Positions 7,513 to 61,781 of a DNA stretch of 64,000 bases are shown piece after piece. The stretch lies in IMG/VR virus record IMGVR_UViG_3300035682_000015; one strand, 5' to 3'. A model generated the notes under the pieces. That model saw nothing but the letters and a program-made list of their open reading frames with translations. It was not told the DNA's origin and ran no database searches. The position numbers were made by a program, and so were the translations under genes. Source of the stretch: a virus. Its lineage: Duplodnaviria > Heunggongvirae > Uroviricota > Caudoviricetes. The stretch's first letter is position 1. Each line of letters starts with the position of its first letter.

Positions 7513-7513
7513 A

Positions 7514-7814: not shown

Positions 7815-7845
7815 CCCTAAGAGTTGAATTCTTAGGGTTTTTTAT
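7813..7845 (+). terminator. intrinsic terminator
   Basis: CCCTAAG-loop-CTTAGGG + T-run, followed by TATATTTG-N4-ATG. Confidence 0.6.
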
Positions 7846-7858
7846 TTATATTTGTGCT

Positions 7859-8005
7859 ATGGATAATTTAAAAAAGTTTATAATAAAAAGAAAGTATGAC
7901 CTTTTGGCTGTGGTTAGTATTATTTTAATGATTTCAATTAATGTTATATTTGCAGTCCCGGCAATTATTTTTCTTATAATCGGAGAAAGTAAAACAAAAC
8001 ATTAA
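7859..8005 (+). CDS. small membrane peptide
   Basis: ATG 4 nt after TATATTTG (7847-7854). Confidence 0.4.
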   Translation: MDNLKKFIIKRKYDLLAVVSIILMISINVIFAVPAIIFLIIGESKTKH

Positions 8006-8526: not shown

Positions 8527-8527
8527 A

Positions 8528-9547: not shown

Positions 9548-9578
9548 AACCCCCATTTAAACGATGGGGTTTTTTATT
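9548..9578 (+). terminator. intrinsic terminator
   Basis: CCCCAT-loop-ATGGGG + T-run. Confidence 0.65.
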
Positions 9579-9598
9579 TTTGTGATATATTTATAGAA

Positions 9599-9967
9599 AT
9601 GGAAATTAAAATTAGTCAGGAACGTTTAAAATATTTTGAAGATTTCATTTTTAATAGTTTTTATATTGATAATGAAGATTTATCTAAATGTTTTCACCCT
9701 CAAATGGGTTATATTAAATTTTTAACTCCTGGAACAAGACGAGATTTAATTGCTCAATATGATAAACAGTATAATTATATTACAGTATTTGATGATAAAT
9801 TATATGAATTAGTTAATCGTTGGGTTGGTTCTCGTACCATTTATGATTTAATTAAAGAAGATTTAATTAGGAGAGTTTTTAAGGTATATACCGAAAAATA
9901 TAAAGGAATATATAAAAAAGAACCAAAGGAGGTTAAGTTTGTTGATAAAGATTTTAATAAAGTTTAA
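9599..9967 (+). CDS. hypothetical protein
   Basis: 122 aa ATG ORF after terminator/ATATTTATA motif. Confidence 0.5.
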   Translation: MEIKISQERLKYFEDFIFNSFYIDNEDLSKCFHPQMGYIKFLTPGTRRDLIAQYDKQYNYITVFDDKLYELVNRWVGSRTIYDLIKEDLIRRVFKVYTEKYKGIYKKEPKEVKFVDKDFNKV

Positions 9968-9985
9968 TAATAAATGAAAAAAAAA

Positions 9986-10012
9986 TGAAGAAGTGTTTGG
10001 CACTTCTTTTTT
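9986..10012 (+). terminator. intrinsic terminator
   Basis: GAAGTG-loop-CACTTC + T-run, followed by TATATTTG-N4-ATG. Confidence 0.55.
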
Positions 10013-10030
10013 TATGCCTATATTTGTGCT

Positions 10031-10552
10031 ATGGAAATGGACTTTACAAAATACTCGGTAGAAGAATTAAGAGAACTTCAAAACAAGATTGGTTATTATT
10101 TACAAACTCGTAATGATGATTTTGTTTATATCTGTGAGATTAGGTCGTATGGTAAAAATTGGGTGAATAAATACACCAATGAACTTGCTGTGAATGATTT
10201 GTGTGCTGATTACGATGGTTATGATGGTATCGTGGATGTATATACAACCAATCCGGATGCAGATATTAATAACTACGGTGAGGTTAATTACATCAAATCG
10301 GATGAACAATACCGTAAGTGGAAAGATAGTGAGAAATTAATATCTTCAATAAAAAGTGCTGAGGAGAGGTTGGCAAAATGGAAAGATAGAGATAACATTC
10401 CATTCCATTCAAGACCAACCTTTGCTCCGATGTGGACAGAACAAGATATTCTTGGGTGGAGAAATGAATTAGAAACCATTGGTGAGTATGAAAAACCTAC
10501 ATCAATTAAAAAAAGTGAAGAGTATGAAGAATCTGACTATGAAGGAGATTAA
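10031..10552 (+). CDS. hypothetical acidic protein
   Basis: 173 aa. Confidence 0.5.
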   Translation: MEMDFTKYSVEELRELQNKIGYYLQTRNDDFVYICEIRSYGKNWVNKYTNELAVNDLCADYDGYDGIVDVYTTNPDADINNYGEVNYIKSDEQYRKWKDSEKLISSIKSAEERLAKWKDRDNIPFHSRPTFAPMWTEQDILGWRNELETIGEYEKPTSIKKSEEYEESDYEGD

Positions 10553-10886
10553 CAAGAAATATGTTAATCGTATTATTGAGTCATTAGAGAATGACAAAGA
10601 ACTTTGGACAAGAGAAGTTATGTGCGGGATGGATGGATGTTTTGTCGATTATTATAGTCCAAAATATCCAACAAAAAATGGGGAAACTTTATCATTTTCT
10701 GATAGGGACTACGTTAGTGCTTATATTGATGGTAAATTTGCGTGGGAAATTCCATTTTGGATGTATCACAATCCATTTAGTGATTCGTCAAGACAATTAA
10801 GAAGAGCAATGGATACGATGAGAGTATATCTTAATGATAAAGATGACCAAGAACATAAAAATAAATTAACAGATTCAATTGAATAA
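10539..10886 (+). CDS. hypothetical protein
   Basis: ATG MKEINKK in frame with ORF 10479; 14-nt overlap. Confidence 0.45.
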   Translation: MKEINKKYVNRIIESLENDKELWTREVMCGMDGCFVDYYSPKYPTKNGETLSFSDRDYVSAYIDGKFAWEIPFWMYHNPFSDSSRQLRRAMDTMRVYLNDKDDQEHKNKLTDSIE

Positions 10887-10887
10887 T

Positions 10888-11634
10888 ATGAAAAAAATTA
10901 AACTTATAAAGTTGTACCCGGGGAGTCCTAATAATTTAGGTATTACATTAACACCTAAAGTGGATATAGATAATAATGATGCCAATAACTTCTATTGGGA
11001 AGGGAGTTGGTTTAATCCAAATCATTATCCTGAATTTTGGGAAGAAGTTGTTGAATTGAATTACGAAATAGTTGCTATGAAAACTCTTATGGGTACTGTT
11101 TTAGAATATGAAGATGGTGTTTGTGTTAAGAGGTCAGATACTAATTGTCCAAGTACAACAAATATATTACAGGTCACTCTCCGTGGAAATAAAAGTACTA
11201 TTTACTCAGTTAAACGTCTATCAGATGGTGAGGTATTCACAATAACCAATAAGGTTCAATTTATGGATACAAAAAGTGTTAACGGGTTTATCACTAAGTT
11301 TGAAATTGTTAATGATAGAATACTTGTTAGTTATGGTAATCAAACATCTAATTTAGATTCACTTGTTTTAGTAAAATTAGTAACATTCAAAACTGAAGAT
11401 GGTGTTGATGTGTTTGAGGGGGGTAAAGTGTGGTATGTTAGAAAAGATTTGACATATAACAATTCTTTTATTGTTAGTAATAATTGTTTTGTTGCTGGTG
11501 AGAATTTATATTTCTCAAAAAAAGAATTGATGAAAAATTATATTAGATTAAATACTCGTTGTTTAAGTTTAAATGATGTTTTGCGTAATACTTTAAATGA
11601 GTTAGATAGAATATCGTATAAAAGAGTGAAATAA
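10888..11634 (+). CDS. hypothetical protein
   Basis: ATG MKKIKLIK; ORF-track start 10879 is TTG. Confidence 0.55.
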   Translation: MKKIKLIKLYPGSPNNLGITLTPKVDIDNNDANNFYWEGSWFNPNHYPEFWEEVVELNYEIVAMKTLMGTVLEYEDGVCVKRSDTNCPSTTNILQVTLRGNKSTIYSVKRLSDGEVFTITNKVQFMDTKSVNGFITKFEIVNDRILVSYGNQTSNLDSLVLVKLVTFKTEDGVDVFEGGKVWYVRKDLTYNNSFIVSNNCFVAGENLYFSKKELMKNYIRLNTRCLSLNDVLRNTLNELDRISYKRVK

Positions 11635-11635
11635 T

Positions 11636-11836
11636 ATGTGGGTGGAAACTAAAATAGTGATGGATGGTGGTTACCAAGAGGCAATCATCTCACAAAATGA
11701 GACACAAAACGCGATTGTCTTAAAAATCGTTGAGGTGGAAGAGCCGGGTTCGGCAAGATTGTATATGTCTTACGATGAGGCGTTACGATTAGCAAATGAG
11801 TTAATAGATTTTGTAAGTAAAAATAGAAATAAATAA
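11636..11836 (+). CDS. hypothetical small protein
   Basis: 66 aa. Confidence 0.45.
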   Translation: MWVETKIVMDGGYQEAIISQNETQNAIVLKIVEVEEPGSARLYMSYDEALRLANELIDFVSKNRNK

Positions 11837-12156
11837 TGAAAGAAGAAATTAAAAGAATTGGGAGATTACCCAATAGTGTGAAGTTTTGGAATGGGTTGGT
11901 GTTAGTTGGTTTAATCGTTACCGGAGTATTAAGTTTAGATATTCTTTCGGTTGTGTTGGCAATAATATCGATTGCTGCTTTAGCGATGTTTATTGATGGT
12001 ATGGGTAGAGAAACTGATGATTATTTGGATAATCATATATGGATATATTTTGCACCATTAACTTGGGGTTTATATATCCTCGCTTTGATTGTTATTGGTT
12101 GTTATAAACTTTATGAGGGAACAATAGTTAAGTTTAATAATTGGTTAAATAAATAA
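11836..12156 (+). CDS. membrane protein
   Basis: TAATG coupling; three TM helices. Confidence 0.5.
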   Translation: MKEEIKRIGRLPNSVKFWNGLVLVGLIVTGVLSLDILSVVLAIISIAALAMFIDGMGRETDDYLDNHIWIYFAPLTWGLYILALIVIGCYKLYEGTIVKFNNWLNK

Positions 12157-12159
12157 GGT

Positions 12160-12495
12160 ATGGAAAAGAAATTAGGAAAAATTGAAGAAGTTCGTTTTGG
12201 TCTTGGTGGATATCAAGGTGCGATGTTAGGACTTCACGTTACATTAGGTAACGGAAGTTGGGGTGTTGGTGATTCAAAATGTAATTGGGACGCTGAACAA
12301 ATAATTTGGACCGAAAATACCCAATGGACTGAAGAAGATAGAGACGGATGGTATTCTGGGATTATGAGATATGTTTCAAAGTTACTATCAGAAGCCAAAG
12401 TGGATTCTGTTGATAAATTAAAAGGAAAACCTGTTGAGGTTACTTTTGATGGGAATCAGTTGAAGAGTTGGAGAATACTAACTGAAGTACTATAA
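12160..12495 (+). CDS. hypothetical protein
   Basis: 111 aa, followed by terminator. Confidence 0.5.
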   Translation: MEKKLGKIEEVRFGLGGYQGAMLGLHVTLGNGSWGVGDSKCNWDAEQIIWTENTQWTEEDRDGWYSGIMRYVSKLLSEAKVDSVDKLKGKPVEVTFDGNQLKSWRILTEVL

Positions 12496-12499
12496 AATA

Positions 12500-12528
12500 A
12501 ACCCCCATTCAACGTGGGGGTTTTTAAT
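12500..12528 (+). terminator. intrinsic terminator
   Basis: CCCCCA-loop-TGGGGG + T-run. Confidence 0.7.
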
Positions 12529-12547
12529 TTGTAAGATATTTATAATT

Positions 12548-12745
12548 ATGAAGTTAATAATTACAGAGTCACAATATAAAACCATCAACGAGATGATTAA
12601 TCTTGATATTAAAGTTGGGGACACCATTATGGGTGGAAAGTTTAAGAATAAAAAGGTTGTTGTGAAGACAATCGGTAAGAATGAAAAGGGTGATATTACT
12701 ATAAATGGTAAGCCGTTGTTACGTTTTAGAATTATAGAAAAATGA
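12548..12745 (+). CDS. MKIIITESQ-leader family protein
   Basis: N-terminus MKLIITESQYKTINEM. Confidence 0.5.
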   Translation: MKLIITESQYKTINEMINLDIKVGDTIMGGKFKNKKVVVKTIGKNEKGDITINGKPLLRFRIIEK

Positions 12746-13071
12746 GAATAATAATTAAAGAAAATAAAAGAGATAAAATAGCCAAGAAGATATTAACTGA
12801 TGAGTTCTCCGGTATGTATGAAGATGTTAATTATATAACAGATTCAAGGGGGGAACACAAAGCAATTGAATATCGTAATGGTAATGGTGTTATTATGATT
12901 TATGGTGATAGAAATGAATCTTTATATATTTGTGAAGATATTACAAATCCCCTTAGAGTATTAACATATACGCCACAACAACTTAAAAATGTTATTGGTG
13001 AATGGTTCTCAGAGTTTTTTGAGTTACCCGTTGAAAATGTTCATCACGTAAATAAAGAGAAATTAAACTAA
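12742..13071 (+). CDS. hypothetical protein
   Basis: ATGA overlap; MRIIIKENKRDKIAKKIL. Confidence 0.5.
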   Translation: MRIIIKENKRDKIAKKILTDEFSGMYEDVNYITDSRGEHKAIEYRNGNGVIMIYGDRNESLYICEDITNPLRVLTYTPQQLKNVIGEWFSEFFELPVENVHHVNKEKLN

Positions 13072-13072
13072 T

Positions 13073-13390
13073 ATGAAAATTTTAATAACAGAAAGTAAAT
13101 TAGAGAGAGTTGCCATTAATTGGTTGAACGATAACTATGGTAATTTGGAACCATATGAAACTAAAGAGTTTCCTGGGTTAATTCTTTACTTAGAAGGTAG
13201 AACAGTAATTATTGAATATAATAAAAAAAATAAAGATGTTTATGTGAATTATGAAAAGATTTGGAAGTTTTTTAAATCCTATTTTAGTTTGGAAAATGAA
13301 CAAATTCAACATTTAATAAAGATGTGGATAGAGGAGAATTACAAATTAAAAGTAAAATCTGCGTCTTATAATAATGTGTATTTACCATAA
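13073..13390 (+). CDS. family-C paralog (MKIxITESK...WLxxNYG...YNKKNG)
   Basis: Paralogous to 20176, 20554 and 49405 genes. Confidence 0.55.
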   Translation: MKILITESKLERVAINWLNDNYGNLEPYETKEFPGLILYLEGRTVIIEYNKKNKDVYVNYEKIWKFFKSYFSLENEQIQHLIKMWIEENYKLKVKSASYNNVYLP

Positions 13391-13391
13391 T

Positions 13392-13790
13392 ATGATAGAG
13401 TTAATAAAAAGAGTATTAAGAGAAGAAATAGAGACCAAGACAAAAGTTTTGGTCTATATCTATTTTTGTGACTACAAAGATGAGAACTTTAGGGAGTATG
13501 TTGATAGATTTAGAAATATGGATATTGATTTTTGGGTTAAACCGAGCAAAGGGCATCACAAAGGGTTCTCCATTCAATCTATATTAGATACTGATGATAT
13601 GTATGAGGCCAAACACATTTCAAGGGACATTTCCCGTGAATTTGATGATGATATATTAATTGTGTTATCAAAACAAAGAGTAACCAATATAGAACCTGTG
13701 GGTGAGAATAATGAAGATGTGTTTGTTAAACCCGGAAGAAAGTTTGATGAGTTGGTTTATAAAGGTAAGAAAGGGATTTATGTAATATGA
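13392..13790 (+). CDS. hypothetical protein
   Basis: Start at MIELIKRVLREE after upstream stop. Confidence 0.5.
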   Translation: MIELIKRVLREEIETKTKVLVYIYFCDYKDENFREYVDRFRNMDIDFWVKPSKGHHKGFSIQSILDTDDMYEAKHISRDISREFDDDILIVLSKQRVTNIEPVGENNEDVFVKPGRKFDELVYKGKKGIYVI

Positions 13791-14368
13791 AAGATTTAAT
13801 TAAAAAGATATTGAGAGAGGAAGTTCAGAAGAGATTTACAAAATCTAATCAAACTTTTGAAAAAATTATTATTAGACATATGGAGAATTTAATCTCTAAT
13901 ACAACAAGAGTTGTTGTGCCACCGGAAGATAATTATGGTAATTATGGGGAAGAATGGTGTAAAGATGGTAAAGCTGTTATTGATGTTAGATATAATTTTT
14001 TTGGTGAAGAAAAATTTGGTTCAGGTAGTTTATTTATTGCGGAAGATGAGGTTAATTTCTTATTCAAAATGTTACGGGTTAGAAAGTCTTATATTCTTAA
14101 TGTAATAACGGAATGGTATGATGATAAATATGCAACAAAGTTTGGACAAGAAACCAATCATCCGGAGTTTGAGATTGATAAAACAATTGAAACAGACAGT
14201 CCTCGTAAATGTTATCAGATGGTTAATACTGATAATTTGAGTAGAGATATGATGATTGATTATATTGATACTCAAACTTCATATAGTACTGAGGAAATAG
14301 AAGAAATGAATGATGAGGAATTAATAAAAACATACATAAGAGTTTATAATATCCAATTAAATAAGTAA
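13787..14368 (+). CDS. hypothetical protein
   Basis: ATGA overlap; MKDLIKKILREE leader. Confidence 0.5.
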   Translation: MKDLIKKILREEVQKRFTKSNQTFEKIIIRHMENLISNTTRVVVPPEDNYGNYGEEWCKDGKAVIDVRYNFFGEEKFGSGSLFIAEDEVNFLFKMLRVRKSYILNVITEWYDDKYATKFGQETNHPEFEIDKTIETDSPRKCYQMVNTDNLSRDMMIDYIDTQTSYSTEEIEEMNDEELIKTYIRVYNIQLNK

Positions 14369-14436
14369 TGAAATATATTACCAATCACCACAAGATAAAC
14401 CCCAATATACTAGGTTTATCCTACCACAAAAGGTAA

Positions 14437-14733
14437 TTACGACATATTCTTCAACACAGCTTCCAACATGGAGATAGATATCTTATCTTGTTTGGATTTC
14501 ACAGATTTTTTATTAAGATATTCCAACGACTCAATCATCTCTTGTTTCTTATCCATAGGTTTAAAAGGTGAGTTTGGAACGTTGATAGGTTGTTTAACAA
14601 CTTCCATAGGTTTATCCTTATAGATGATAGTGGTGGATTCACCAATCATTGCCATAATATCCTGAGCAGTTTTCTCCACTATAGATTTAACTAATTTCTT
14701 ATATTCCTTCTTGGTTAATTTTATTTTTTTCAT
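14437..14733 (-). CDS. hypothetical protein
   Basis: Real ATG at 14733 (MKKIKLTKKEYKK); track start 14763 is TTG. Confidence 0.5.
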   Translation of the reverse strand: MKKIKLTKKEYKKLVKSIVEKTAQDIMAMIGESTTIIYKDKPMEVVKQPINVPNSPFKPMDKKQEMIESLEYLNKKSVKSKQDKISISMLEAVLKNMS

Positions 14734-14734
14734 A

Positions 14735-14899
14735 TTATTTAAACATTGGTGTAAAGTATTCAATTAGATATTTTGCGTAATTAGTTAAAAACTCATTACC
14801 ATCAAAGATGAATGTTTCTTTAGAATTATTCACAGCGTTTTGATATTCGTTTTTTAATCTTGAGAATGTTGGTAAATCAACTGACATAGTATTTGACAT
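14735..14899 (-). CDS. hypothetical small protein
   Basis: 54 aa, 1 nt upstream of next gene; rc TATCTTTG at 14923-14930. Confidence 0.35.
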   Translation of the reverse strand: MSNTMSVDLPTFSRLKNEYQNAVNNSKETFIFDGNEFLTNYAKYLIEYFTPMFK

Positions 14900-14997
14900 A
14901 ACGGTTTATTTTAATTAGAGTACAAAGATACACTAATATTTTAACTTACCAAATTATTTGACAAAATAATTCATTATGTCTATTATTGTGAGGTAAA

Positions 14998-15573
14998 ATG
15001 ATTGATATGAAATTAAACGAACAATTAACAAAAATTAAATCAATGATGGGAATCAATGAAAACAAACAATCTTATCCATACTCTTGTGCTATGTTATACT
15101 TTAACCCGGATTCGGTTACAGAACTACATAGTAAAATAAACCCGGAGGACCTATACACAGAAGAAGATGGGTTTGGTTTAGAACCGGAATCACACTGTAC
15201 GTTACTATACGGATTACACGATAATGAGGTTGATATTGAAGATATTATTAACGTAATAAACAAATACTCTTACACAAATTGTAAGGCACATAACCTATCT
15301 TGTTTTAACAATCCAAAGTATGATGTGTTAAAATATGATATAATGGGGGATAATCTAAGTGAAACTAATGAGGAGTTAAAACAATTCCCATTCACAAGTG
15401 ATTACCCGGACTATCACGCCCATATGACCGTGGCATATCTTAAACCGGGTAAAGGTAATCATTATATTAATATGTTGGGTGATGAATACAAAGAAATGGT
15501 AATGACACCTCAACACGCTGTGTATTCAAGAACTGATGGTACCAAACACAAAATACCGGTTAGGTTTACATAA
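14998..15573 (+). CDS. 2H phosphoesterase superfamily protein (LigT/Acb1-like)
   Basis: Two H-x-T-x motifs 76 aa apart: HCTLLYGL (aa 66) and HMTVAYL (aa 142), matching HxTLxFxG / HxT[LV]A of LigT-type 2H enzymes. Confidence 0.55.
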   Translation: MIDMKLNEQLTKIKSMMGINENKQSYPYSCAMLYFNPDSVTELHSKINPEDLYTEEDGFGLEPESHCTLLYGLHDNEVDIEDIINVINKYSYTNCKAHNLSCFNNPKYDVLKYDIMGDNLSETNEELKQFPFTSDYPDYHAHMTVAYLKPGKGNHYINMLGDEYKEMVMTPQHAVYSRTDGTKHKIPVRFT

Positions 15574-15646
15574 CAATCTAACTCAGATTTACAATTCGGG
15601 TAATACCTGAGGAGTAGGAGTGACGGTCAGGAAAGACTGACAACTT

Positions 15647-15799
15647 GGTCAAGTGGCGAAAATGGTAGACGATAAGCACAGTGCGTGTGTGAGAGTTGTG
15701 ATGTAAGCTGGGGTGTACAACCCGGAGATTCCAATTATGGATTCAGTGGCGAACGCAAATAGCCATTAACTCGTACAGGTTCGAATCCTGTCTTGACCA
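15647..15799 (+). tRNA. tRNA gene with ~65-nt insertion (candidate intron); type-II (Leu-like) D-arm; anticodon unassigned
   Basis: Perfect 7-bp acceptor stem GGTCAAG/CTTGACC. T-arm ACAGG-TTCGAAT-CCTGT. D-loop GGCGAAAATGGTAGACG. Discriminator A. 153 nt total. Confidence 0.55.
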
Positions 15800-15839
15800 C
15801 AAATATATAAAAAAAGTTTGGATATATAAAAAATAGTAT

Positions 15840-15847
15840 TATCTTTG
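15840..15847 (+). promoter_or_regulatory. -7 promoter element TATCTTTG (copy 1 of duplicated 47-nt promoter unit)
   Basis: Identical unit at 16246-16292. Confidence 0.5.
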
Positions 15848-15874
15848 TGCTCAATATTAATTAAAAAAAAGACT

Positions 15875-16252
15875 ATGACAAAAACTCAGGAATATTTGAA
15901 AAACAAAAAAATACAAGAAATGGGTTTACCTAAATTGTATGTTGTTAAATCTTCCCCTGATGGGGTTGAAAAACCTATTGAGAGACAGGTTGTTGAAATC
16001 GAAGAAAATGTTGCGTTTAGAGGTAAAGAAAGATTACCGATTGACCGATACAAAGTTGAAAATGGTTATCCTTATGAAATAGATTTTCTTAGAGGTGAAA
16101 ACACTACAAAAGAAGATGGATACGGTTCAGGGATAGGTGATTTATGGGGTTGGTCGTATTTTTCAACCTTTTTAGAAGAAGAGGCTAAGATGTATTACAA
16201 CTTAGAGTTAAGTAGAGTTCAAAAAAAATATAATAAAAGTTTAACTATATAA
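15875..16252 (+). CDS. hypothetical protein
   Basis: ATG MTKTQEY; track start is TTG inside promoter. Confidence 0.5.
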   Translation: MTKTQEYLKNKKIQEMGLPKLYVVKSSPDGVEKPIERQVVEIEENVAFRGKERLPIDRYKVENGYPYEIDFLRGENTTKEDGYGSGIGDLWGWSYFSTFLEEEAKMYYNLELSRVQKKYNKSLTI

Positions 16253-16262
16253 AAAATAGTAT

Positions 16263-16270
16263 TATCTTTG
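16263..16270 (+). promoter_or_regulatory. -7 promoter element TATCTTTG (copy 2)
   Basis: Duplicate of 15823-15870. Confidence 0.5.
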
Positions 16271-16299
16271 TGCTCAATATTAATTAAAAAAAGAAAATT

Positions 16300-16815
16300 A
16301 TGATTTCAGAAGGTCAGTTTTTAGTGGGTTTGTTGATTGTGTTGACATTTGGTTTAACGTTTTTATTTAGAAAACTTGATAGTGATGGGGGTGTTCCTTG
16401 GTTATTATCGTCACTATTATCATTTTTTGCGTCGTGTCTATTGATTATTATAATCTTTTTCACAGTTAGATGGATAGATTCAAATGAAACTGAGTATTAC
16501 TCACGAAGAGCTAACATCACATCAATAAAGAATAATGATGAGGTTGGTGGCCATTTTATGTTGGGTTGTGGTAATATTGAACAAACGGAGTATTACTATT
16601 ACTATTACAAATCAGTAGATGGTTATGTGAGAGGTAAAAAACCGGTTAATAACACCTTCATTGTTGAGGATAGTTCAGTTAGACCACACGTTGAGGTTAA
16701 TATGACACATTTTGAATCAAAATCGGGGTTATTCACATATCACGATGAGGAAAATGAGAAATACAAAATAGTGGTACCAAAAGGTACTGTTGTTAATAAA
16801 TTTGAGGTATATTAA
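16300..16815 (+). CDS. membrane-anchored hypothetical protein
   Basis: N-terminal TM helices; C-terminus VVNKFEVY recurs as remnants downstream. Confidence 0.5.
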   Translation: MISEGQFLVGLLIVLTFGLTFLFRKLDSDGGVPWLLSSLLSFFASCLLIIIIFFTVRWIDSNETEYYSRRANITSIKNNDEVGGHFMLGCGNIEQTEYYYYYYKSVDGYVRGKKPVNNTFIVEDSSVRPHVEVNMTHFESKSGLFTYHDEENEKYKIVVPKGTVVNKFEVY

Positions 16816-16963
16816 TTATGATAGAAGATAAGATTGAAACATTTAAAAACAAATAACATGAAACAAACAAATATTGAACCACAATTAATTCCCTTAAAAG
16901 ATTTGATAAAAGAGTGGAAAAAAATAAAAGAATGGTTTAGTAAATTTAAAAAGAAATAAAGAT

Positions 16964-17410
16964 ATGAAACAAACAAAATTTGATATAGTTAAAGATGAAA
17001 AAGAAATAATAGATATTTTTAAATGGATTTCAAACAATAAATATGATGGTGAATATCCTAATTTTCAATTGCAAGGAACTTCTGAAAATATTAAATTACA
17101 TTTTCAAACATTTTTTGGTGAAAAAGAATTTGTAATAGATGATTGGTTAATTGATGGGGTTAAATACATTATGGAAGTTTATGGATATAAGTATAGTACA
17201 AACATAAAACCAATTAGTATTTCATTCAAAATTGATAATCCTAATTATGATGTGATTAATGACTTGATAAATGACTATGAAGGTGTTACTGTAGGTGGTA
17301 AATTACTTAAGAACTCAAATAAAAAAATAGTAAAATGTAAAACTTTTGATAAAATTGAAAAGGTTTTAAACTTAAAAGTTAGTAAATTATCTATTAAAAT
17401 ATCAAAATAA
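16964..17410 (+). CDS. hypothetical protein
   Basis: 148 aa. Confidence 0.5.
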   Translation: MKQTKFDIVKDEKEIIDIFKWISNNKYDGEYPNFQLQGTSENIKLHFQTFFGEKEFVIDDWLIDGVKYIMEVYGYKYSTNIKPISISFKIDNPNYDVINDLINDYEGVTVGGKLLKNSNKKIVKCKTFDKIEKVLNLKVSKLSIKISK

Positions 17411-17445
17411 ATACGCAAAAAAAAACAATTATAAAAAAATAAATT

Positions 17446-17712
17446 ATGAATATATTAGATATTGAAAAATTAAAACAACTTATATCAAGAACTGATATAA
17501 GTGGTAACGATAAGGTAAAATGGCTTACAGACTTTATAGATGGTAGAGAATTTCATCAACAAGAAAGAAGTTATAGTGAGGAAGAAGTATTTAGATTAAC
17601 ATTAGAAGCTTTAGACTTAGGAATGAGAATCAGGCAAGACCAATTAAATGGTTATTCTGAAAAATCTGGTAAAGAATTACATGAAGAATGGTTTGAACAA
17701 TTTAAAAAATAA
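17446..17712 (+). CDS. stand-alone C-module protein (QQERSYSEEE...WFEQFKK)
   Basis: Same module as C-termini of 28226, 29076, 30037 and 31280 genes. Confidence 0.5.
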   Translation: MNILDIEKLKQLISRTDISGNDKVKWLTDFIDGREFHQQERSYSEEEVFRLTLEALDLGMRIRQDQLNGYSEKSGKELHEEWFEQFKK

Positions 17713-17749
17713 AAATTATGGTGGTAAATACAATTGAGGTATATTAATT

Positions 17750-17965
17750 ATGATAGAAGATAAGATTGGGGGTCTAAATGATTCCGAAATTAACTTTCTA
17801 AAAGATTTTGGTACAGACCCTGTGTTAAGAAAGTTTATGACATCTGAAGAAATTAAGGTTTCAAATAAATTAGTTAAGAAAGGATTGATGGAAAAAGGAA
17901 TGTCTGACGATAAAAAGTCAAATGTTGTTTATTATGTTGATTCATTTATATATACAAGATTATGA
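17750..17965 (+). CDS. hypothetical small protein
   Basis: 71 aa. Confidence 0.4.
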   Translation: MIEDKIGGLNDSEINFLKDFGTDPVLRKFMTSEEIKVSNKLVKKGLMEKGMSDDKKSNVVYYVDSFIYTRL

Positions 17966-18054
17966 TAGTAAATACAATTGAATTCCCAACACCAATAGGG
18001 GTAAAATGTAATATGATGCCGTTCTATGGCAATACGAAGGTAGATAAAATTAAA

Positions 18055-18085
18055 CAAAGGAGATGTAACATTCTCCTTTTTTTTA
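18055..18085 (+). terminator. intrinsic terminator
   Basis: AGGAGA-loop-TCTCCT + T8, then TATATTTATATATATG start. Confidence 0.55.
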
Positions 18086-18096
18086 TATTTATATAT

Positions 18097-18594
18097 ATGA
18101 ATTTACAAGAGAATATAATTAGAATACAGGAAATGATGGGGATTATCTCTGAGGCTAAATCTTCATATACTGTATCTCAGATAAAGAAGGGGTTAAATAA
18201 GTCAGAAAACGACAAAGATATAACAATTAATACGAGTATTGATAATGTTATAGATAATATTGACCAATTTGAGTTTGAGATTGGTTCTGTAGAATCATTT
18301 TTAGATGATGAGAACAGTTTCACATCGGATTCGTTGGTGGATAAACTTATATCTTACGTCAAAGATAAGAATTTAAATATTGATATATCTAAATTGATTG
18401 AGTACAACAATTATAGAAAGGAGTACGATAAGAATGATGATAAAGTGTTTGAACTTTTATATAACACACACCCTGATGATGACTATTCAGAGGAGATAGA
18501 TAGGTTACGTGATAGAAATGATGAGTTATATAAGTATTTTGATTTACTAAAACAGGAAACCTTAAAGATTAAACAAGAGATTATTAATTTATAA
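18097..18594 (+). CDS. MNLQENI-leader family protein
   Basis: MNLQENIIRIQEMMGIISE. Confidence 0.5.
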   Translation: MNLQENIIRIQEMMGIISEAKSSYTVSQIKKGLNKSENDKDITINTSIDNVIDNIDQFEFEIGSVESFLDDENSFTSDSLVDKLISYVKDKNLNIDISKLIEYNNYRKEYDKNDDKVFELLYNTHPDDDYSEEIDRLRDRNDELYKYFDLLKQETLKIKQEIINL

Positions 18595-19364
18595 TGAATT
18601 TACAAGAAGATATACAGAGAATAAGACAGATGATGATTTCGGAAGAAATGGTTCAATCTGATGCGTGGAAATCAATCAAGAAAACATTAGACATTCTTAA
18701 AAAGAAAAAGAAAGTTTTAATCTTAAGTTGTTCCAATAGATATAATTGGGATGAGAAAAACCTTGACATACCAAAATCAAAGATGATTGCAATGTATCTT
18801 AACGATGAGTTAAAAAACTCAGTGTTAATTGATGTTTCCGAACTTAATATTGTTCCTTGTGAGGGGAATGTGTCGAGAAAAGACGGGAACAGTTGTGGTT
18901 TATTAAAAGCGATGCTCAAAGATAAGAAAAAGAATCCATCCGGTGACCATAGATGTTGGGCGAGTTATAACAATCCAAAGGATGAGTTATGGAAGATATC
19001 TAAGGAGTTATTTGAATCTGATGCTGTTGTATTCTTTAGTTCCGTAAGATGGGGACAGACCAATATGTTTTATCAGAATTTAATTGAGAGATTGACTTGG
19101 ATTGAGAACAGACACGCAACCTTGGGTGAATCAAATCTTGTTAAAGATATTGAGACAGGATTCATTTGTGTTGGACAGAATTGGAATGGTGAGAATGTGA
19201 CTGAAACACAGAAAGAAGTTCATAGGTTCTACGGATTCAAACCAAATAATGATTTATATTGGAATTGGCAATACACCAAGAATGTGAACGATGAAACCCA
19301 AAAATCATATAAGGATTCACACAAGAAATTTATCAAAGATACTAAATTATCTGATACCAAATAA
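18594..19364 (+). CDS. MNLQE-leader protein with flavodoxin-like/NADPH-FMN reductase-like fold
   Basis: KVLILSCSNR ... AVVFFSSVRWGQTNMFYQNLIER pattern resembles flavodoxin_2 family; weak. Confidence 0.4.
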   Translation: MNLQEDIQRIRQMMISEEMVQSDAWKSIKKTLDILKKKKKVLILSCSNRYNWDEKNLDIPKSKMIAMYLNDELKNSVLIDVSELNIVPCEGNVSRKDGNSCGLLKAMLKDKKKNPSGDHRCWASYNNPKDELWKISKELFESDAVVFFSSVRWGQTNMFYQNLIERLTWIENRHATLGESNLVKDIETGFICVGQNWNGENVTETQKEVHRFYGFKPNNDLYWNWQYTKNVNDETQKSYKDSHKKFIKDTKLSDTK

Positions 19365-19365
19365 T

Positions 19366-19800
19366 ATGAACTTACAAGAAAACATAGATAGAATACAAAT
19401 AATGATGGGAATTATCACAGAAAACAAGACAATTCAAAAAATGGTTGATGAGTTAGGTTTGGTAACGGCTATCAAATATTATGGGGGTTTTGATAATTTC
19501 ATTAAACATTATAGATTTCCACCTAAGGAGGAGATTCTTAATTTAATTAAGAAAGTATTCAAGGATTCAAAGACAAATGAATTTTATGATACAAATATTA
19601 ATATTTTAAATAGAAGAGATGATGAGGTGGATATTGTCAGTGTATTTCATCCTGATTCAATGTTTTTTGAGACCTACGAAACATTGGATGGTAGATTAAT
19701 AAAATTAAAAACAGAAAAAACAGTTAGATATGAGGATTTACCGGAGAATATTCTTAATAGAGTATTTTATGATATAATAAGATTGTCTGAAAAAAAATAA
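19366..19800 (+). CDS. MNLQENI-leader family protein
   Basis: MNLQENIDRIQIMMGIITE. Confidence 0.5.
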   Translation: MNLQENIDRIQIMMGIITENKTIQKMVDELGLVTAIKYYGGFDNFIKHYRFPPKEEILNLIKKVFKDSKTNEFYDTNINILNRRDDEVDIVSVFHPDSMFFETYETLDGRLIKLKTEKTVRYEDLPENILNRVFYDIIRLSEKK

Positions 19801-19806
19801 AACAAT

Positions 19807-20157
19807 ATGGACTTACGAGAGAACATAAGAACAGTATTAAGGGAGGAAACCAAAGTAGATTTAACTCGAGCAATACAAAGATTATTAAATGTGTTTGTTG
19901 ATAACCACAAAGACATTCTTTGTAGGGTTGAGGTTATCCATCCAAATAAGAGAATCAAACTACCGGAACATATGTATGACCACGAACACTACGCGGTTTA
20001 TTTCTATTTCATCGGGGGATATGGTAGTGTTAATTGGCCTGCCACCCGAGAGGTTTTGGATAAGTTTGATAAATTAATGAATGAAGCGTGGGGTTTGGTA
20101 TATAATTACACAAATCAAACAATAGATGTTTTTGCTAAACACGTAAAAGAATGTTAA
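19807..20157 (+). CDS. hypothetical protein
   Basis: MDLRENIRTVLREE leader variant. Confidence 0.5.
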   Translation: MDLRENIRTVLREETKVDLTRAIQRLLNVFVDNHKDILCRVEVIHPNKRIKLPEHMYDHEHYAVYFYFIGGYGSVNWPATREVLDKFDKLMNEAWGLVYNYTNQTIDVFAKHVKEC

Positions 20158-20175
20158 AACCTTATAAACGGGGGA

Positions 20176-20529
20176 TTAATTAATATGATATTTAGTGAGA
20201 TGATACTTACCACACTCATTACAATGCCAAGTAGTATATGTAACTTCTGTAACGTGTTGATTATAATTTTCTTCAATCCAAGGTATAAAGATTTTATTCA
20301 AGTCGTGACTATCAACACTAAATATAGAAACTAAAAATTGTTGTAGTTCATCATCCTCTATTGTGACAATACCGTAATCGTTACGAAATGTAAAAATGGT
20401 TGTCCCGTCTTTTTTTTTATAGTAAACTATTCCGTGACTATTCTCCATTCCAATTAAATCACCATAGTTATCGTCTAACCATTTAATAACAATATTGTTT
20501 CTTCTATTCTCTGTTAGTATTATTTTCAT
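20176..20529 (-). CDS. family-C paralog
   Basis: MKIILTENRRNNIVIKWLDDNYGDL. Confidence 0.55.
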   Translation of the reverse strand: MKIILTENRRNNIVIKWLDDNYGDLIGMENSHGIVYYKKKDGTTIFTFRNDYGIVTIEDDELQQFLVSIFSVDSHDLNKIFIPWIEENYNQHVTEVTYTTWHCNECGKYHLTKYHIN

Positions 20530-20553
20530 ATTATCTTAATTTTTAATGTTCCT

Positions 20554-20877
20554 TCACCCCCAATTTGATAACTCAGTAGTAGAAAGTATTCTTGTTACTC
20601 TTAAATTGTAACGTTCCTCCACCCATACCTTTGTTAAACTCTCAATTTGTTGGTTAGACATACTAAACATACGTTCAAAAAATGACCAAATTTCTTCATA
20701 AGTCACATAAACATACCCATTTTTTTTATTGTAATCAAAAATTATTTCTTCACCTTTTCGGTAAAAAATGTGGTTAGGAAATTTTTTTGGTTCATATGGT
20801 TTCAAATCACCATAGTTATTGTCTAACCATTTAATGGCGACTTTTTCTATTTTACTCTCAGTTATTATTACTTTCAT
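20554..20877 (-). CDS. family-C paralog
   Basis: MKVIITESKIEKVAIKWLDNNYG...YNKKNGYVYV; rc TATCTTTG at 20895-20902. Confidence 0.55.
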   Translation of the reverse strand: MKVIITESKIEKVAIKWLDNNYGDLKPYEPKKFPNHIFYRKGEEIIFDYNKKNGYVYVTYEEIWSFFERMFSMSNQQIESLTKVWVEERYNLRVTRILSTTELSNWG

Positions 20878-51951: not shown

Positions 51952-52125
51952 ATGGGACTTATAAATAATCTTTATGCTGTGTATGAAAAATCACCGGCAC
52001 ACGGGAGCAAAGAACATAATGTAATTTTGGCTCCTTTCAAAACTAAAGAAGAGGCAGAACAAAACAGAATTAAATACGGTTATAACACCGATAATTATTA
52101 CGTAGATATTTTGAAATATGAATAA
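51952..52125 (+). CDS. hypothetical small protein
   Basis: 57 aa, stop overlaps thyA start. Confidence 0.3.
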   Translation: MGLINNLYAVYEKSPAHGSKEHNVILAPFKTKEEAEQNRIKYGYNTDNYYVDILKYE

Positions 52126-53266
52126 ACTAGATAAACAATACACAGACCTTCTCCAAGACATTCTTGACAACGGAGTAACAAAACAAGACAGAACAGGTAC
52201 AGGGACAATCTCAGTATTCGGAAGACAAATACGTCACGATATGAAAGATGGTTTTCCTCTTTTGACTACAAAGAAAATGCCATTCAAAACAATCGTAACA
52301 GAACTTCTTTGGTTCTTACGAGGAGATACCAACATTAAGTTTTTGGTTGATAATAATTGTCATATTTGGGATGGTGATTGCTACAAATCTTATAAACAAA
52401 GTATTTTAGAATCCTTTGATAGATTATCAAATGACCCCGTAATAGATGCGATGCCACCTAGAATATTAACACAAGAAGAATTCACCAACAAAATCAAAAC
52501 AGATGATGAGTTTGCTAAGAAGTGGGGTGAGTTAGGTCCTGTGTACGGTAAGCAATGGAGAAAGTGGGGTTATGATAGTGATAAATGGAGAGAAGACTAT
52601 AACAAATTACAATTTGGTTCTAAAGAAGAAATTGAACACCTTAGTAAAAAAGGTATAGACCAAATCACAAACCTAATCAACGACCTTAAAACAAATCCAG
52701 ACTCAAGACGATTGATGGTTAATGCTTGGAATGTTGGAGAATTAGACCAAATGGTTCTTCCACCTTGTCATTATGGATTTCAAGTTTATACAAGAGAGTT
52801 GAGTTTAGATGATAGAAAAGATATTTGGAATAAAAACAATTTCAGTCAAGATATGTCGTGGCATAATATGGAAGAACACGATATTATGGATTTACTAAAC
52901 GATAATGACATCCCAAAACGAGCAATCTCTTTAATGTTTAATATGAGGTCAAATGATGTTCCATTAGGGCTTCCATTTAATATATCATCTTATGGTTTAT
53001 TATTAGAAATTATTGGGAAAATGGTTAATATGATACCTGACGAATTAATTACTAATTTAGGTGATGCTCATATCTATAAAAACCAAGTAGATGGTGTTAA
53101 AGAACAATTAACAAGGAAACCATTTGAATTACCTAAATTAGTTATGTCTAACCAAATTAATTTTAATGAAAGTGTTGCTGAATTTTTGAATAGTTGTCTA
53201 ATAACTGATTTTATTGTTGAAAATTATCAATCACATCCAACCATAAAAATGCCATTATCTAACTAG
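52118..53266 (+). CDS. thyA: thymidylate synthase family (ThyA, long-insert type); possibly pyrimidine hydroxymethylase
   Basis: DRTGTGT, ELLWFLRGDTN, LGPVYGKQWR, LPPCHYGFQ (catalytic Cys), DVPLGLPFNISSYG; L. casei-like small-domain insert plus extra ~35-aa insert. Confidence 0.8.
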   Translation: MNKLDKQYTDLLQDILDNGVTKQDRTGTGTISVFGRQIRHDMKDGFPLLTTKKMPFKTIVTELLWFLRGDTNIKFLVDNNCHIWDGDCYKSYKQSILESFDRLSNDPVIDAMPPRILTQEEFTNKIKTDDEFAKKWGELGPVYGKQWRKWGYDSDKWREDYNKLQFGSKEEIEHLSKKGIDQITNLINDLKTNPDSRRLMVNAWNVGELDQMVLPPCHYGFQVYTRELSLDDRKDIWNKNNFSQDMSWHNMEEHDIMDLLNDNDIPKRAISLMFNMRSNDVPLGLPFNISSYGLLLEIIGKMVNMIPDELITNLGDAHIYKNQVDGVKEQLTRKPFELPKLVMSNQINFNESVAEFLNSCLITDFIVENYQSHPTIKMPLSN

Positions 53267-53322: not shown

Positions 53323-54153
53323 ATGAAAAAGTTTTTAATCTATGAAATAAAAAACAATATAAATGGTAAATCTTATATTGGACAATATAGTGGTGAGTCA
53401 TTTGAAAAGTATTTTGGAAGTGGAAAATTAATTAAGTTATCAATAAAAAAATATGGGTTAGAAAATTTTTCTAAAACAATTTTAGAAGAGTGCTTTAATA
53501 AAAATGAATTGAATGAAAAAGAAATTTTTTGGATAGATAAATTAAAAACTATTGAAAATGGTTATAATTTGACTGAAGGTGGAACAGGGGGTGATTTGTC
53601 TGAATTTATAAAGTATGGTGAGAATTGGGTTGAAAAACAAAGAATCTCCACAAAAAAATATTGGGACAATCTAACTGAAGATGAAAGAAAAAAAAGAAGT
53701 GAAATTGTTTCAGGTGAAAAAAATGGGATGTATGGTAAAGATGGATTTTGGAAGGGTAAAAAAATACCAATAGATATTATTAAAAAGTCATTGGAGAATA
53801 GAAGAAGTTACGATAAAGAACAAAACCCAAATTGGAAAGGTGGTGTTACATATGTTTATTGTGAATGTGGTAAAAGAATAGGTTATGGTCACATTCATTG
53901 TAACAAATGTAGACCTAGAACTAAAAACAATAATCCATTTTATGGGAAACAACATTCCGAAGAGACTAAAAAAAAATTAAGTGAAAAAAGGAAAGGGGTA
54001 AAACCAACAAATATGAAACCGGTAATGATTGATAATATTATTTATGAAAGTTTGGCGGAAGCGTCAAATATACTTAAAATTCCAATGGTTACAATTCGTT
54101 GGAGAGTGAAAAGTAATAATGAAAAATTTAATAATTACCAATATAAAGAATAA
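53323..54153 (+). CDS. GIY-YIG homing endonuclease
   Basis: IYEIKNNINGKSYIGQ ... NGYNLTEGGTGG; NUMOD-like repeats; Cys4 zinc finger CECGKRIGYGHIHCNKCR. Confidence 0.75.
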   Translation: MKKFLIYEIKNNINGKSYIGQYSGESFEKYFGSGKLIKLSIKKYGLENFSKTILEECFNKNELNEKEIFWIDKLKTIENGYNLTEGGTGGDLSEFIKYGENWVEKQRISTKKYWDNLTEDERKKRSEIVSGEKNGMYGKDGFWKGKKIPIDIIKKSLENRRSYDKEQNPNWKGGVTYVYCECGKRIGYGHIHCNKCRPRTKNNNPFYGKQHSEETKKKLSEKRKGVKPTNMKPVMIDNIIYESLAEASNILKIPMVTIRWRVKSNNEKFNNYQYKE

Positions 54154-60473: not shown

Positions 60474-60598
60474 ATTTTAATTATAAATAGATTAATAAAA
60501 AAGTAAAACATATTGACTTTTTATCTCAATATAGTATATTTATTACCAATGAACCGATATGAATTATACACGCCGAACAATTATATTACTGAAAAGTA

Positions 60599-60632
60599 AG
60601 TCCCTATTTTATTTTAGGGACTTTTTTTTGCC
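60599..60632 (+). terminator. orphan intrinsic terminator after 16-codon mini-ORF
   Basis: AGTCCCTA-loop-TAGGGACT + T8 in divergent intergenic region. Confidence 0.5.
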
Positions 60633-60666
60633 CATATGTTAAAAATTAAAATTAAATATAAAAACC

Positions 60667-61497
60667 ATGAAAAACACAAAAACTTACCACGAGTTGGTAC
60701 AAAAATTAAGAACGTTCTTCGTAAATAAGAACTTTATTGAGGTTCCGACCCAATCAAGATTATCTATTTTAGCTGCTTGTGAAAACCCACACTCAGTAAA
60801 AACCTTTGAATATGGGGGTGAAATTTGGCCATTACCACAAACCGGGCAAATGTGGTTAGAATTGGAATTATTGAAGAATCCTGAATGGGATGGAGTGTTC
60901 TGTATTTCAACATCATATAGAGAAGAGAAAAATCCAATCCCGGGTCGTCACGAATTAATCTTTCCCATGTTTGAATTTGAATCAAAGGGCGGTATGCTTC
61001 ATTTACTCGTATTAGAACGTGAATTATTACAATATTTAGGTTTCTCAGAACCAGTTCCCGTAGATTACGAACAAGTTTGTAAAGAATATGGAGATGTTTC
61101 TATTTTAGAAGATGAACACGAATCGAGAATGTGGAAAGAAAAAAGTGAGGTTATATCATTACAAAACTTTCCAATTAGAACAAACCCATTTTGGAATATG
61201 AAACACGATTCAGATAACATCTTCAATAAGGTTGACGTAATCCTTTTTGGTCAAGAAACTATTGGTTCTGCTGAAAGAAGTTGTGATGTTGAAAAGATGC
61301 GAGAGATGTTCTATACAATTGAAGGTGGTGGTTACTCTCAGAAATTATTTGAATTATTTGGAAAAGATAGAGTTGAGAAAGAATTAAAAGAATTCTTATC
61401 TTTGGACTTTTTCCCAAGATTCGGAGCCGGAATTGGTTTAACAAGATTGGCAAGAGCTTATGAATTAAATCAAAAAGTTTTGGAAGTTATAGAATAA
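60667..61497 (+). CDS. class-II aminoacyl-tRNA synthetase catalytic-core paralog (EpmA/GenX- or AsnA-like), no anticodon-binding domain
   Basis: Motif 1 FFVNKNFIEVPTQ; motif 2 YREEKNPIPGRHELIFPMFEFE; motif 3 RFGAGIGLTRLARAY. Confidence 0.6.
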   Translation: MKNTKTYHELVQKLRTFFVNKNFIEVPTQSRLSILAACENPHSVKTFEYGGEIWPLPQTGQMWLELELLKNPEWDGVFCISTSYREEKNPIPGRHELIFPMFEFESKGGMLHLLVLERELLQYLGFSEPVPVDYEQVCKEYGDVSILEDEHESRMWKEKSEVISLQNFPIRTNPFWNMKHDSDNIFNKVDVILFGQETIGSAERSCDVEKMREMFYTIEGGGYSQKLFELFGKDRVEKELKEFLSLDFFPRFGAGIGLTRLARAYELNQKVLEVIE

Positions 61498-61514: not shown

Positions 61515-61697
61515 ATGAGTAAAGTGGTAAAAGAATTAGGAAAAAAGTGGGAACAGATTTATGATGACCCCGATGAAACAGTTATTTGGAGATATGATAC
61601 TTCAAAAAGTAAATTTGGACCTTATGAGGTCGAAATAAAATACAAACGACCAGTGGTTAGAACCAAGAAAGTCACAAGAAAGGTTACTGTAAAGTAA
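61515..61697 (+). CDS. small basic protein
   Basis: 60 aa. Confidence 0.4.
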   Translation: MSKVVKELGKKWEQIYDDPDETVIWRYDTSKSKFGPYEVEIKYKRPVVRTKKVTRKVTVK

Positions 61698-61781
61698 CCT
61701 TTTTCGTTTTTAATACTAACAAATACACAAATAAATTTTACAATATTTATTATAATATAAACAATTGTAAAATTAAAAATT

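Follow-up and report, generated by a model that had tools for sequence, protein, structure and literature searches.

Fusions and operons suggest a role in pyrimidine synthesis for an asparaginyl-tRNA synthetase-like protein of a large phage

The window analysed here, a 64,000-nucleotide stretch of a large tailed phage (IMG/VR record IMGVR_UViG_3300035682_000015), encodes a protein that resembles the catalytic core of asparaginyl-tRNA synthetase (AsnRS), a class IIb aminoacyl-tRNA synthetase (aaRS). We use X as shorthand for this stand-alone AsnRS-like class IIb core and for its family. Fusions and operons in many other viruses, bacteria and archaea suggest that the partners of X are the last three enzymes of uridine-nucleotide synthesis and that it does not act in translation. 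These are PyrD (dihydroorotate dehydrogenase), PyrE (orotate phosphoribosyltransferase) and PyrF (orotidine monophosphate decarboxylase), which complete the route to uridine monophosphate (UMP). We consider it highly probable that X belongs to this pyrimidine module. The fuller proposal, that X is an active AsnRS-derived, adenylate-forming enzyme of de novo UMP synthesis acting with PyrD, PyrE and PyrF, stands at about an even chance, as does the formation of dihydroorotate by X, and its exact substrate is less certain. The best-supported reading is that X is an aaRS-like enzyme of UMP synthesis that has not been described before, with its function read from gene context.

X is fused to and encoded with PyrD, PyrE and PyrF

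Both a PyrD-X and an X-PyrF fusion are present among the longer representatives of the family. The PyrD-X fusions fall into eight separate 90%-identity clusters, and since these are only 38-40% identical to one another the architecture is old and stable and not an assembly artefact. In the fusions the X domain shares 51% identity with the X of the window and 54-55% with cyanophage copies. In one locus a PyrE-PyrF fusion adjoins PyrD-X in divergent orientation (L087), and in another X-PyrF, PyrE and PyrD lie together (L091).

Scanning one genome for each prokaryotic species of GTDB, we found 436 relatives at 55-72% identity, mainly from the candidate phyla radiation (CPR/Patescibacteria), DPANN archaea, Dependentiae/Babeliales, Chlamydiae, Coxiellaceae and Bdellovibrio-like bacteria, with some from Bacteroidota; the family is enriched in viruses and host-dependent microbes. 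We clustered all open reading frames (ORFs) within 10 kb on either side of the best 80 of these 436. By far the commonest neighbours of X were PyrD, PyrE and PyrF, found in 24 of the 80 loci, and 41 of the 44 such genes lay within 2 kb; despite the width of the spans, only one locus had pyr genes more than 4 kb from X. All three enzymes were encoded in 10 of the 24 loci, PyrE and PyrF in 9, and partial sets in the remainder. Among the gene orders are X-PyrD-PyrE-PyrF (L246, L259), which follows the sequence of pathway steps, X-PyrE-PyrF-PyrD (L204, L236), PyrD-PyrEF-X (L214, L241) and, in Coxiellaceae and others, X-PyrE-PyrF, with intergenic gaps of 48-255 nt in these operons. A Dependentiae PyrD-PyrE-PyrF triple fusion is also among the neighbours. 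PyrB, PyrC and CarAB do not recur as neighbours in the 80 cellular loci. In a neighbour-joining tree of 170 X sequences the pyr-linked copies are spread over at least eight separate clades, and, with three to five viral loci added to the 24 cellular ones, linkage by operon or fusion to enzymes of the pathway is seen in unrelated lineages.

An ATP-dependent phosphoenolpyruvate carboxykinase gene was also observed beside X in two phyla, directly upstream in Bacteroidota (L202, L205, L234, L237, L239) and just after X-PyrE-PyrF in Coxiellaceae (L216, L219, L252, L255, L257).

The jumbo-phage clade to which the window belongs is sister, in the same tree, to two Cytophagaceae copies (L181, L182). 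The second of these, from a metagenome-assembled genome, lies in a genuine bacterial nucleotide-synthesis island (4883-20806, 45% GC) with the order PurL, amidohydrolase, ArgH-like lyase, X, SF1 helicase, two Fic proteins, class 1A PyrD, PyrE-PyrF fusion, PurA and PurM. It is not a mis-binned relative of the phage, with which it has only X in common and from which it differs in GC content (45% vs 31%). The amidohydrolase is not PyrC: it belongs to the uncharacterised, cytosine-deaminase-like PRK06886 family. Amidohydrolase, lyase and X may form a functional unit.

An alternative within the nucleotide module is that X takes a different step or role, for example as an aspartate-dependent ligase paired with an ArgH/PurB-like lyase or as a HisZ-like partner or regulator of PyrE. 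HisZ is a precedent for an aaRS paralogue that serves a phosphoribosyltransferase, and PyrE is the most constant partner of X, being present without PyrD in the nine PyrE-PyrF operons and as the sole pyr gene in cyanophages; X also follows the ArgH-like lyase in the Pur/Pyr island of both Cytophagaceae loci. That lyase adjacency, however, is confined to one small clade, HisZ-type regulators typically lack the catalytic arginines whereas every ATP/Mg residue of X is invariant (see below), and the PyrD fusion and the colinear X-PyrD-PyrE-PyrF order favour a step before PyrD. We regard this alternative as rather improbable.

An intact AsnRS-type active site is conserved in all but one small branch of the family

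The original prediction, made from the DNA letters alone, described a class II catalytic core that carries motifs 1, 2 and 3 of subclass IIb and lacks an N-terminal OB-fold, and both points held. Motifs 1 and 2 occupy residues 17-28 and 84-105 and motif 3 residues 253-262 (Table 1). The Pfam family PF00152 (tRNA-synt_2, class II D/K/N) matches with 52.2 bits against a gathering cut-off of 25, over residues 3-275 of the 276 and profile positions 21-302 of 308. As this domain alone covers the protein and the Pfam scan found no second one, X has no OB anticodon-binding domain. An AlphaFold2 model built from a 51-sequence family alignment (pLDDT 96.9, pTM 0.93) has the antiparallel-sheet fold of class II enzymes.

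The amino-acid pocket is of the AsnRS type. In the alignment of hidden Markov models (HMMs) the family motif LPQTGQMxLE stands opposite LTQSSQLYLE of AsnRS, where aspartyl-tRNA synthetase (AspRS) has QSPQLYKQ, so that L64 and E65 of X occupy the positions of the AspRS lysine and glutamine; as in AsnRS, Leu-Glu takes the place of that lysine. The pocket arginine R204 and the glutamate after motif 2, E103, are AsnRS-like too; by our reading of the alignment E103 pairs with the glutamate of AsnRS and not with the aspartate of AspRS. We take these positions of X to correspond to the published specificity residues of the two synthetases. The histidine of the 'PH-G-G' segment of AspRS and AsnRS is replaced by R251. 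Taken with the model, these alignments show that the X of the window is an intact stand-alone AsnRS-like catalytic core, with the class II fold, the ATP/Mg site and the AsnRS-type pocket in place.

Profile comparisons agree. Matched against EpmA, AsnA-type enzymes and lysyl-tRNA synthetase (LysRS), as the original prediction had suggested, the family profile scored best with AsnRS (58 bits), followed by archaeal/eukaryotic-type AspRS (43-54 bits) and the archaeal asparagine synthetase AS-AR (33 bits), with EpmA and LysRS weakest at about 25 bits. By structure AsnRS is again closest to X, nearer than AS-AR. Neither canonical identity is reached by the X of the window itself, which scores 19.2 bits with the asnS equivalog (cut-off 342.6) and 24.4 with the AspRS(ND) model (cut-off 353); it falls in a PHROG family of no known function.

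X matches more than 8000 database clusters, nearly all of about 276 residues (range about 270-290). In an exhaustive search of 1.8 billion representatives, 171 clusters were found at E<=1e-30 and just 651 at E<=1e-3, by which the family is sharply set off from canonical synthetases. In all X groups, whatever the genomic context, the same set of about 30 residues is 100% conserved. They include the ATP/Mg residues R85, E87, R94, H95, D190, E197 and R260 and the pocket residues C38, E39, Q58, T59, Q61, L64, E65, E103, R204 and R251; invariant C38, K188 and N177 are specific to the family. This conservation across contexts makes one activity likely for the whole family, so that the operon and fusion evidence carries over to the X of the window, and the intact ATP/Mg residues favour catalysis over a merely regulatory role. 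An aaRS fragment or pseudogene, or a protein short of the ATP-binding arginines, had been named as what would overturn the original prediction. The uniform length of the family and its invariant active-site residues rule out a fragment or pseudogene, and R85 and R260 are both present and invariant. The isoelectric point is acidic (family median 5.3; 5.1 in the window), a value more usual among metabolic enzymes than among RNA-binding proteins.

The segment with D190, E197 and R204 is lost only in a degenerate gammaproteobacterial branch (L092 10001-10849 and L093 10001-10849; P0183, P0271, P0272), which has conserved synteny with lpxB on one side and rpmB/rpmG on the other. Its members lack the Mg-binding D190 and E197, two of them also R204, and judged by these losses the branch has probably given up catalysis. 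Low-complexity acidic or proline-rich extensions, uninformative in themselves, are N-terminal in P0324, P0325 and P0328 and C-terminal in P0249, and suggest that these members are eukaryote or giant-virus copies. The best match in a viral structure library is a pithovirus copy (A0A481Z9R2, 45% identity).

EpmA-like and asparagine synthetase activities as rival readings

The original prediction likened X to EpmA/GenX or AsnA and proposed the modification of a translation factor or a tRNA-independent amino-acid ligation during infection. The first part, its lead hypothesis, did not survive. An EpmA/GenX/PoxA-like enzyme would (beta-)lysylate host EF-P, but the X of the window scores only 18.8 bits with TIGR00462 (cut-off 286.9) and 19.6 with NF006828 (cut-off 264), and its pocket motif fails to match the lysine pocket of LysRS and aligns with the QSSQLYLE of AsnRS. 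Moreover, a gammaproteobacterial contig (L093) with a member of X between lpxB and rpmB also carries, about 4 kb from it, efp followed by a separate 315-residue gene that scores 393 bits with the genX model, so that a true EpmA coexists with X. With that exception neither efp nor epmB was linked to X among about 250 loci. The EpmA identity is effectively refuted.

The second part, AsnA-like chemistry, remains plausible. E. coli-type AsnA itself was rejected, as X does not match its Pfam domain (PF03590), but an archaeal-type, AS-AR-like asparagine synthetase would turn aspartate and ATP into beta-aspartyl-AMP and then, with ammonia, into asparagine. X and AS-AR have chemistry and architecture in common, and a supply of asparagine would suit an AT-rich phage with an asparagine-rich proteome. 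Such an activity nevertheless leaves unexplained the fusions to PyrD and PyrF, the X-PyrD-PyrE-PyrF operons, the spread of pyr linkage over at least eight clades and the exact co-occurrence with pyrE in reference phages (see below); the AS-AR models reach only 16-17 bits against cut-offs of 322-389, and AsnRS is structurally nearer to X than AS-AR is. We hold it to be possible but doubtful.

A tRNA cassette in one clade of T4-like phages

In the cyanophages P-SSM2, P-SSM5 and P-SSM7 an atypical tRNA with a GUU anticodon follows X by 10-170 nt on the same strand. The pairing is also found, at the same spacing, in 16 of 80 diverse viral loci with flanking genes that vary between them, and this is the only tRNA in those loci (Table 1). 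Its acceptor end (U1-A72, G73) resembles that of tRNA-Asn, the D stem has 3 bp and the variable arm is long, of type II. The anticodon loop has the form C-N-G-U-U-U-A/C, with a base other than U at position 33 in some copies and U in place of a purine at position 37. Some copies encode CCA. In the cloverleaf 96% of cells are paired and 14 pairs show compensatory changes.

The association of X with this tRNA is real. It invites the view that X is a minimal aaRS, or another tRNA-dependent enzyme, acting on substrates like tRNA-Asn with no use of the anticodon; T4-like phages would supply its dedicated substrate in the atypical type II tRNA directly downstream. The compensatory pairs and the persistence of the cassette amid differing flanks speak for this, as do AsnRS as the closest structure and the CPR and DPANN copies of X near aaRS and Dus genes. 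All tRNA-linked copies of X, however, form one clade of the tree. ARAGORN, Rfam and a custom covariance model found no such tRNA near the X of the window or in at least 58 close relatives, and the covariance model found none beside X in giant-virus loci or in 87 cellular loci. X also lacks an anticodon-binding or other RNA-binding domain and is acidic, the pyr fusions and operons would be left unexplained, and in one T4-like contig (L151) the X-tRNA cassette itself adjoins PyrE and PurM. A tRNA-dependent role for X thus seems unlikely.

Pyrimidine genes near X in viruses

In that T4-like contig the order is clamp loader, X, tRNA, PyrE and PurM; elsewhere among viruses X has PyrEF (L142) or PyrD (L145) as neighbour. 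Among the Prochlorococcus-phage records of the reference collection, pyrE and X occur in the same six and in no others (three of P-SSM2, one of P-SSM5 and two of P-SSM7), and of the pyr genes these cyanophages carry PyrE alone. Linkage is rarer in viruses, yet recurrent, and the rarity is expected from the scattered order of viral genes. Single-sequence scans of viral contigs found no PyrD, PyrE or PyrF elsewhere in the lineage of the phage; the PyrE alignment was too divergent for a pattern scan.

A proposed ATP-dependent route to dihydroorotate

The intact class II adenylation site, the Asp/Asn-type pocket, the linkage to PyrD, PyrE and PyrF and the absence of PyrC from the clusters together point to the step that feeds PyrD. 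The amide that dihydroorotase closes, between a ureido nitrogen and the beta-carboxylate of aspartate, is of the same bond chemistry as that formed by AsnA and AS-AR, and we therefore propose an ATP-dependent cyclisation. X would use ATP, releasing AMP and pyrophosphate, to make L-dihydroorotate ahead of PyrD. In the most economical chemistry the beta-carboxylate of N-carbamoyl-L-aspartate would be adenylated in the manner of AsnA, and the ureido nitrogen would then attack the adenylate intramolecularly to give dihydroorotate. X would thereby be an irreversible, ATP-driven replacement or bypass of the reversible dihydroorotase (PyrC) step. In the phage it would serve as a nucleotide-supply auxiliary gene that draws an aspartate-derived precursor of the host into pyrimidines for DNA replication, relying on PyrD, PyrE and PyrF of the host or on phage copies beyond the window. 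Such a bypass would help viruses and host-dependent cells that draw on the metabolite pools of a host; Dependentiae, for one, are described as salvage-dependent (PMC6561590).

Several observations weigh against this proposal. E39, T59 and Q61, which hold the alpha-amino group in AspRS and AsnRS, are invariant in X, and a free amino acid would fit them better than N-carbamoyl-aspartate. There is no precedent for such an enzyme activity, nor did the literature searched offer one. At 56 of the 80 cellular loci X has no pyr neighbour, the CPR and DPANN copies sit by translation-type genes (SerRS, DusB, TyrRS/TrpRS-type), and one T4-like phage clade couples X tightly to its atypical tRNA. Searches with tblastn and custom HMMs found no pyr genes in the window or in L001, which reaches past its 3' end, the whole phage genome being, by its relatives, over 300 kb; none were found in the flanks of at least 58 close jumbo-phage relatives either. 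A 318-kb jumbo-phage contig, IMGVR_UViG_3300042465_005589, carries an X with 97% identity. Full-text literature searches returned no paper that links the family to pyrimidines or treats its function.

The cellular loci with translation-type neighbours have syntenies of their own. Nine CPR loci (L209, L215, L217, L221, L232, L235, L243, L249, L251) have the order DprA, SerRS, a protein of about 290 residues and unknown function, a DusB-like flavoenzyme, X and DnaX; the Dus-like enzyme and PyrD are members of one FMN TIM-barrel superfamily. In DPANN archaea (L186-L191, L213) the order is TyrRS/TrpRS-type synthetase, GTPase, methyltransferase, LigT, X and Hef.

A free amino acid as substrate would suit the pocket better. 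X might bind free L-asparagine in its AsnRS-type pocket and be a one-enzyme shortcut from it and CO2 or bicarbonate to dihydroorotate, a reading to which we assign a low probability. The carbamate formed by CO2 or bicarbonate with the alpha-amino group of asparagine would be adenylated, and the side-chain amide nitrogen would close the ring. Carbamate adenylation has a precedent in the synthesis of threonylcarbamoyl-AMP by TsaC/Sua5. Followed by PyrD, PyrE and PyrF, such an enzyme would lead from asparagine to UMP in a path of four enzymes, with no need of carbamoyl-phosphate synthetase, aspartate transcarbamoylase or dihydroorotase. This path would account for the module in viruses and minimal host-dependent genomes and for the invariant residues that hold the alpha-amino and carboxamide groups. 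In a related variant aspartate and urea would react via beta-aspartyl-AMP.

Local anatomy and the surrounding phage genome

X is followed by a small ORF and a terminator-like hairpin, which on the sequence probably close its transcription unit. The hairpin upstream of X could be a leader or attenuator, or could be the terminator of the divergent upstream genes (Table 1).

Table 1 Features of the X locus in the window and tRNA(GUU) genes beside X in other loci (positions are those of the window unless a locus is named)
Feature	Position	Strand	Basis or remark
Intergenic region upstream of X, between divergent genes	60474..60666	.	consensus scan
Promoter-like site before X	60513-60540	+	weak evidence, from a consensus scan only
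9-bp hairpin and T-run between promoter-like site and X start codon, putative leader	60598-60623		consensus scan only
X coding sequence, 276 aa, ATG start	60667..61497	+	ORF translation
Motif 1 FFVNKNFIEVPT, residues 17-28	60715..60750	+	F17, F18, E25 conserved
Amino-acid pocket motif LPQTGQMWLE, residues 56-65	60832..60861	+	HMM alignment to 2xti/2xgt and 3nel; residue conservation (Q58, T59, Q61, L64, E65 invariant across the family)
Motif 2 YREEKNPIPGRHELIFPMFEFE, residues 84-105, with R85, E87, R94, H95, E103, E105	60916..60981	+	alignment and conservation
Metal/substrate segment DVILFGQETIGSAER, residues 190-204; Mg ligands D190, E197; pocket Arg R204	61234..61278	+	AsnRS/AspRS alignment
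R251 and motif 3 RFGAGIGLTRLA, residues 251-262; motif 3 Arg is R260	61417..61452	+	alignment and conservation
Small ORF downstream of X, 60 aa	61515-61697	+	ORF call; same ORF called in L001
Terminator-like hairpin 3' of small ORF	61677-61704	+	consensus scan only
tRNA(GUU) beside X, P-SSM7	L002 5790-5876
tRNA(GUU) beside X, P-SSM2	L003 4798-4885
tRNA(GUU) beside X, P-SSM5	L084 3765-3852
tRNA(GUU) beside X	L151 5245-5330
tRNA(GUU), further loci	L153, L157, L159, L161-L164, L167-L169, L172, L173, L178-L180

The window comes from a large phage with a GC content of about 30-31% that is absent from the phage reference collection: a megablast of 9 kb against the phage records gave no match. The phage also encodes an endolysin of PG_binding+GH19 architecture. 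At its start the window has a GIY-YIG/NUMOD3 homing endonuclease (371-1198, minus strand) and an SPFH/Band-7 protein (1996-2853). A thymidylate-synthase-family gene (52118-53266) is unusually long at 382 residues and is directly followed by an I-TevI-like homing endonuclease (53323-54153) with ZnF, NUMOD3 and DNA-binding domains. Three genes downstream of X, an ORF with a precomputed Pfam match to Tad6 (PF25188; 63361-63957, minus strand) runs past the end of the window (12695-13393 in L001), and about 5 kb beyond that end lies a 622-residue Hsp70/DnaK-family protein (L001 15788-17656).

About 80 nt are inserted between the D-arm and the T-arm of a tRNA-like gene at 15647-15799 (plus strand), whose acceptor stem (GGUCAAG/CUUGACC) is good, whose discriminator is A and whose T-loop is canonical. 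The gene was missed by ARAGORN and by the whole-window Rfam scan and reached the Rfam tRNA model, at 29.5 bits against a cut-off of 29, in a local sensitive search only. The insertion may be an intron, or the tRNA may be interrupted in some other way.

Significance and comparison with known systems

Public records name X proteins 'aspartyl/asparaginyl-tRNA synthetase', 'class II (D/K/N) domain-containing protein' or 'tRNA ligase', and in a comparative cyanophage paper of 2010 the gene appears just as a sporadic 'tRNA ligase' (PMC3037559). If X makes dihydroorotate, textbook UMP synthesis would have an unrecognised, ATP-driven alternative step, and the 'incomplete' pyrimidine pathways that metabolic reconstructions give for CPR, DPANN, Dependentiae, Chlamydiae and Coxiellaceae would need revision. 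A gene very abundant in marine and freshwater phages and giant viruses, more than 8000 clusters of which bear the label 'Asp/Asn-tRNA synthetase' or 'tRNA ligase' today, would become a nucleotide-supply auxiliary metabolic gene and would no longer be read as evidence of viral translation capacity.

Several aaRS paralogues have been recruited to metabolism, among them AsnA, AS-AR and HisZ; in the literature searched none is assigned to pyrimidine synthesis. AsnRS, the closest relative of X, has the N-terminal OB anticodon-binding domain that X lacks and a conserved histidine before motif 3 where X has R251; C38, K188 and N177 are further residues specific to the X family. The context of AsnRS is translation, that of X pyrimidine genes. 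AS-AR (PDB 3p8t/3reu/3rl6 and 1nnh) is, like X, a stand-alone AsnRS-like core without an anticodon-binding domain. The two are not orthologous, given the profile score above and the scores of X with NF005055 (17.3 bits, cut-off 389) and NF005053 (15.7, cut-off 322), and their taxonomic spread and gene context differ. EpmA/GenX/PoxA is derived from LysRS and has a lysine pocket, in contrast to the AsnRS-type pocket of X.

E. coli-type AsnA, the aspartate-ammonia ligase, has a class II aaRS-like fold, as X does, and adenylates the beta-carboxylate of aspartate to form an amide, the chemistry that we borrow for X. PyrC would share with X the net closure of carbamoyl-aspartate to dihydroorotate and the position before PyrD. 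The analogy is functional only: PyrC, of the amidohydrolase superfamily, is unrelated in fold and mechanism, being a reversible, ATP-independent metalloenzyme, whereas X would consume ATP in an adenylation. HisZ, the HisRS paralogue of ATP phosphoribosyltransferase, is like X a catalytic core without an anticodon-binding domain that was recruited to a phosphoribosyltransferase pathway. It belongs to class IIa, is regulatory and has lost aminoacylation residues, whereas X keeps all of its catalytic residues.

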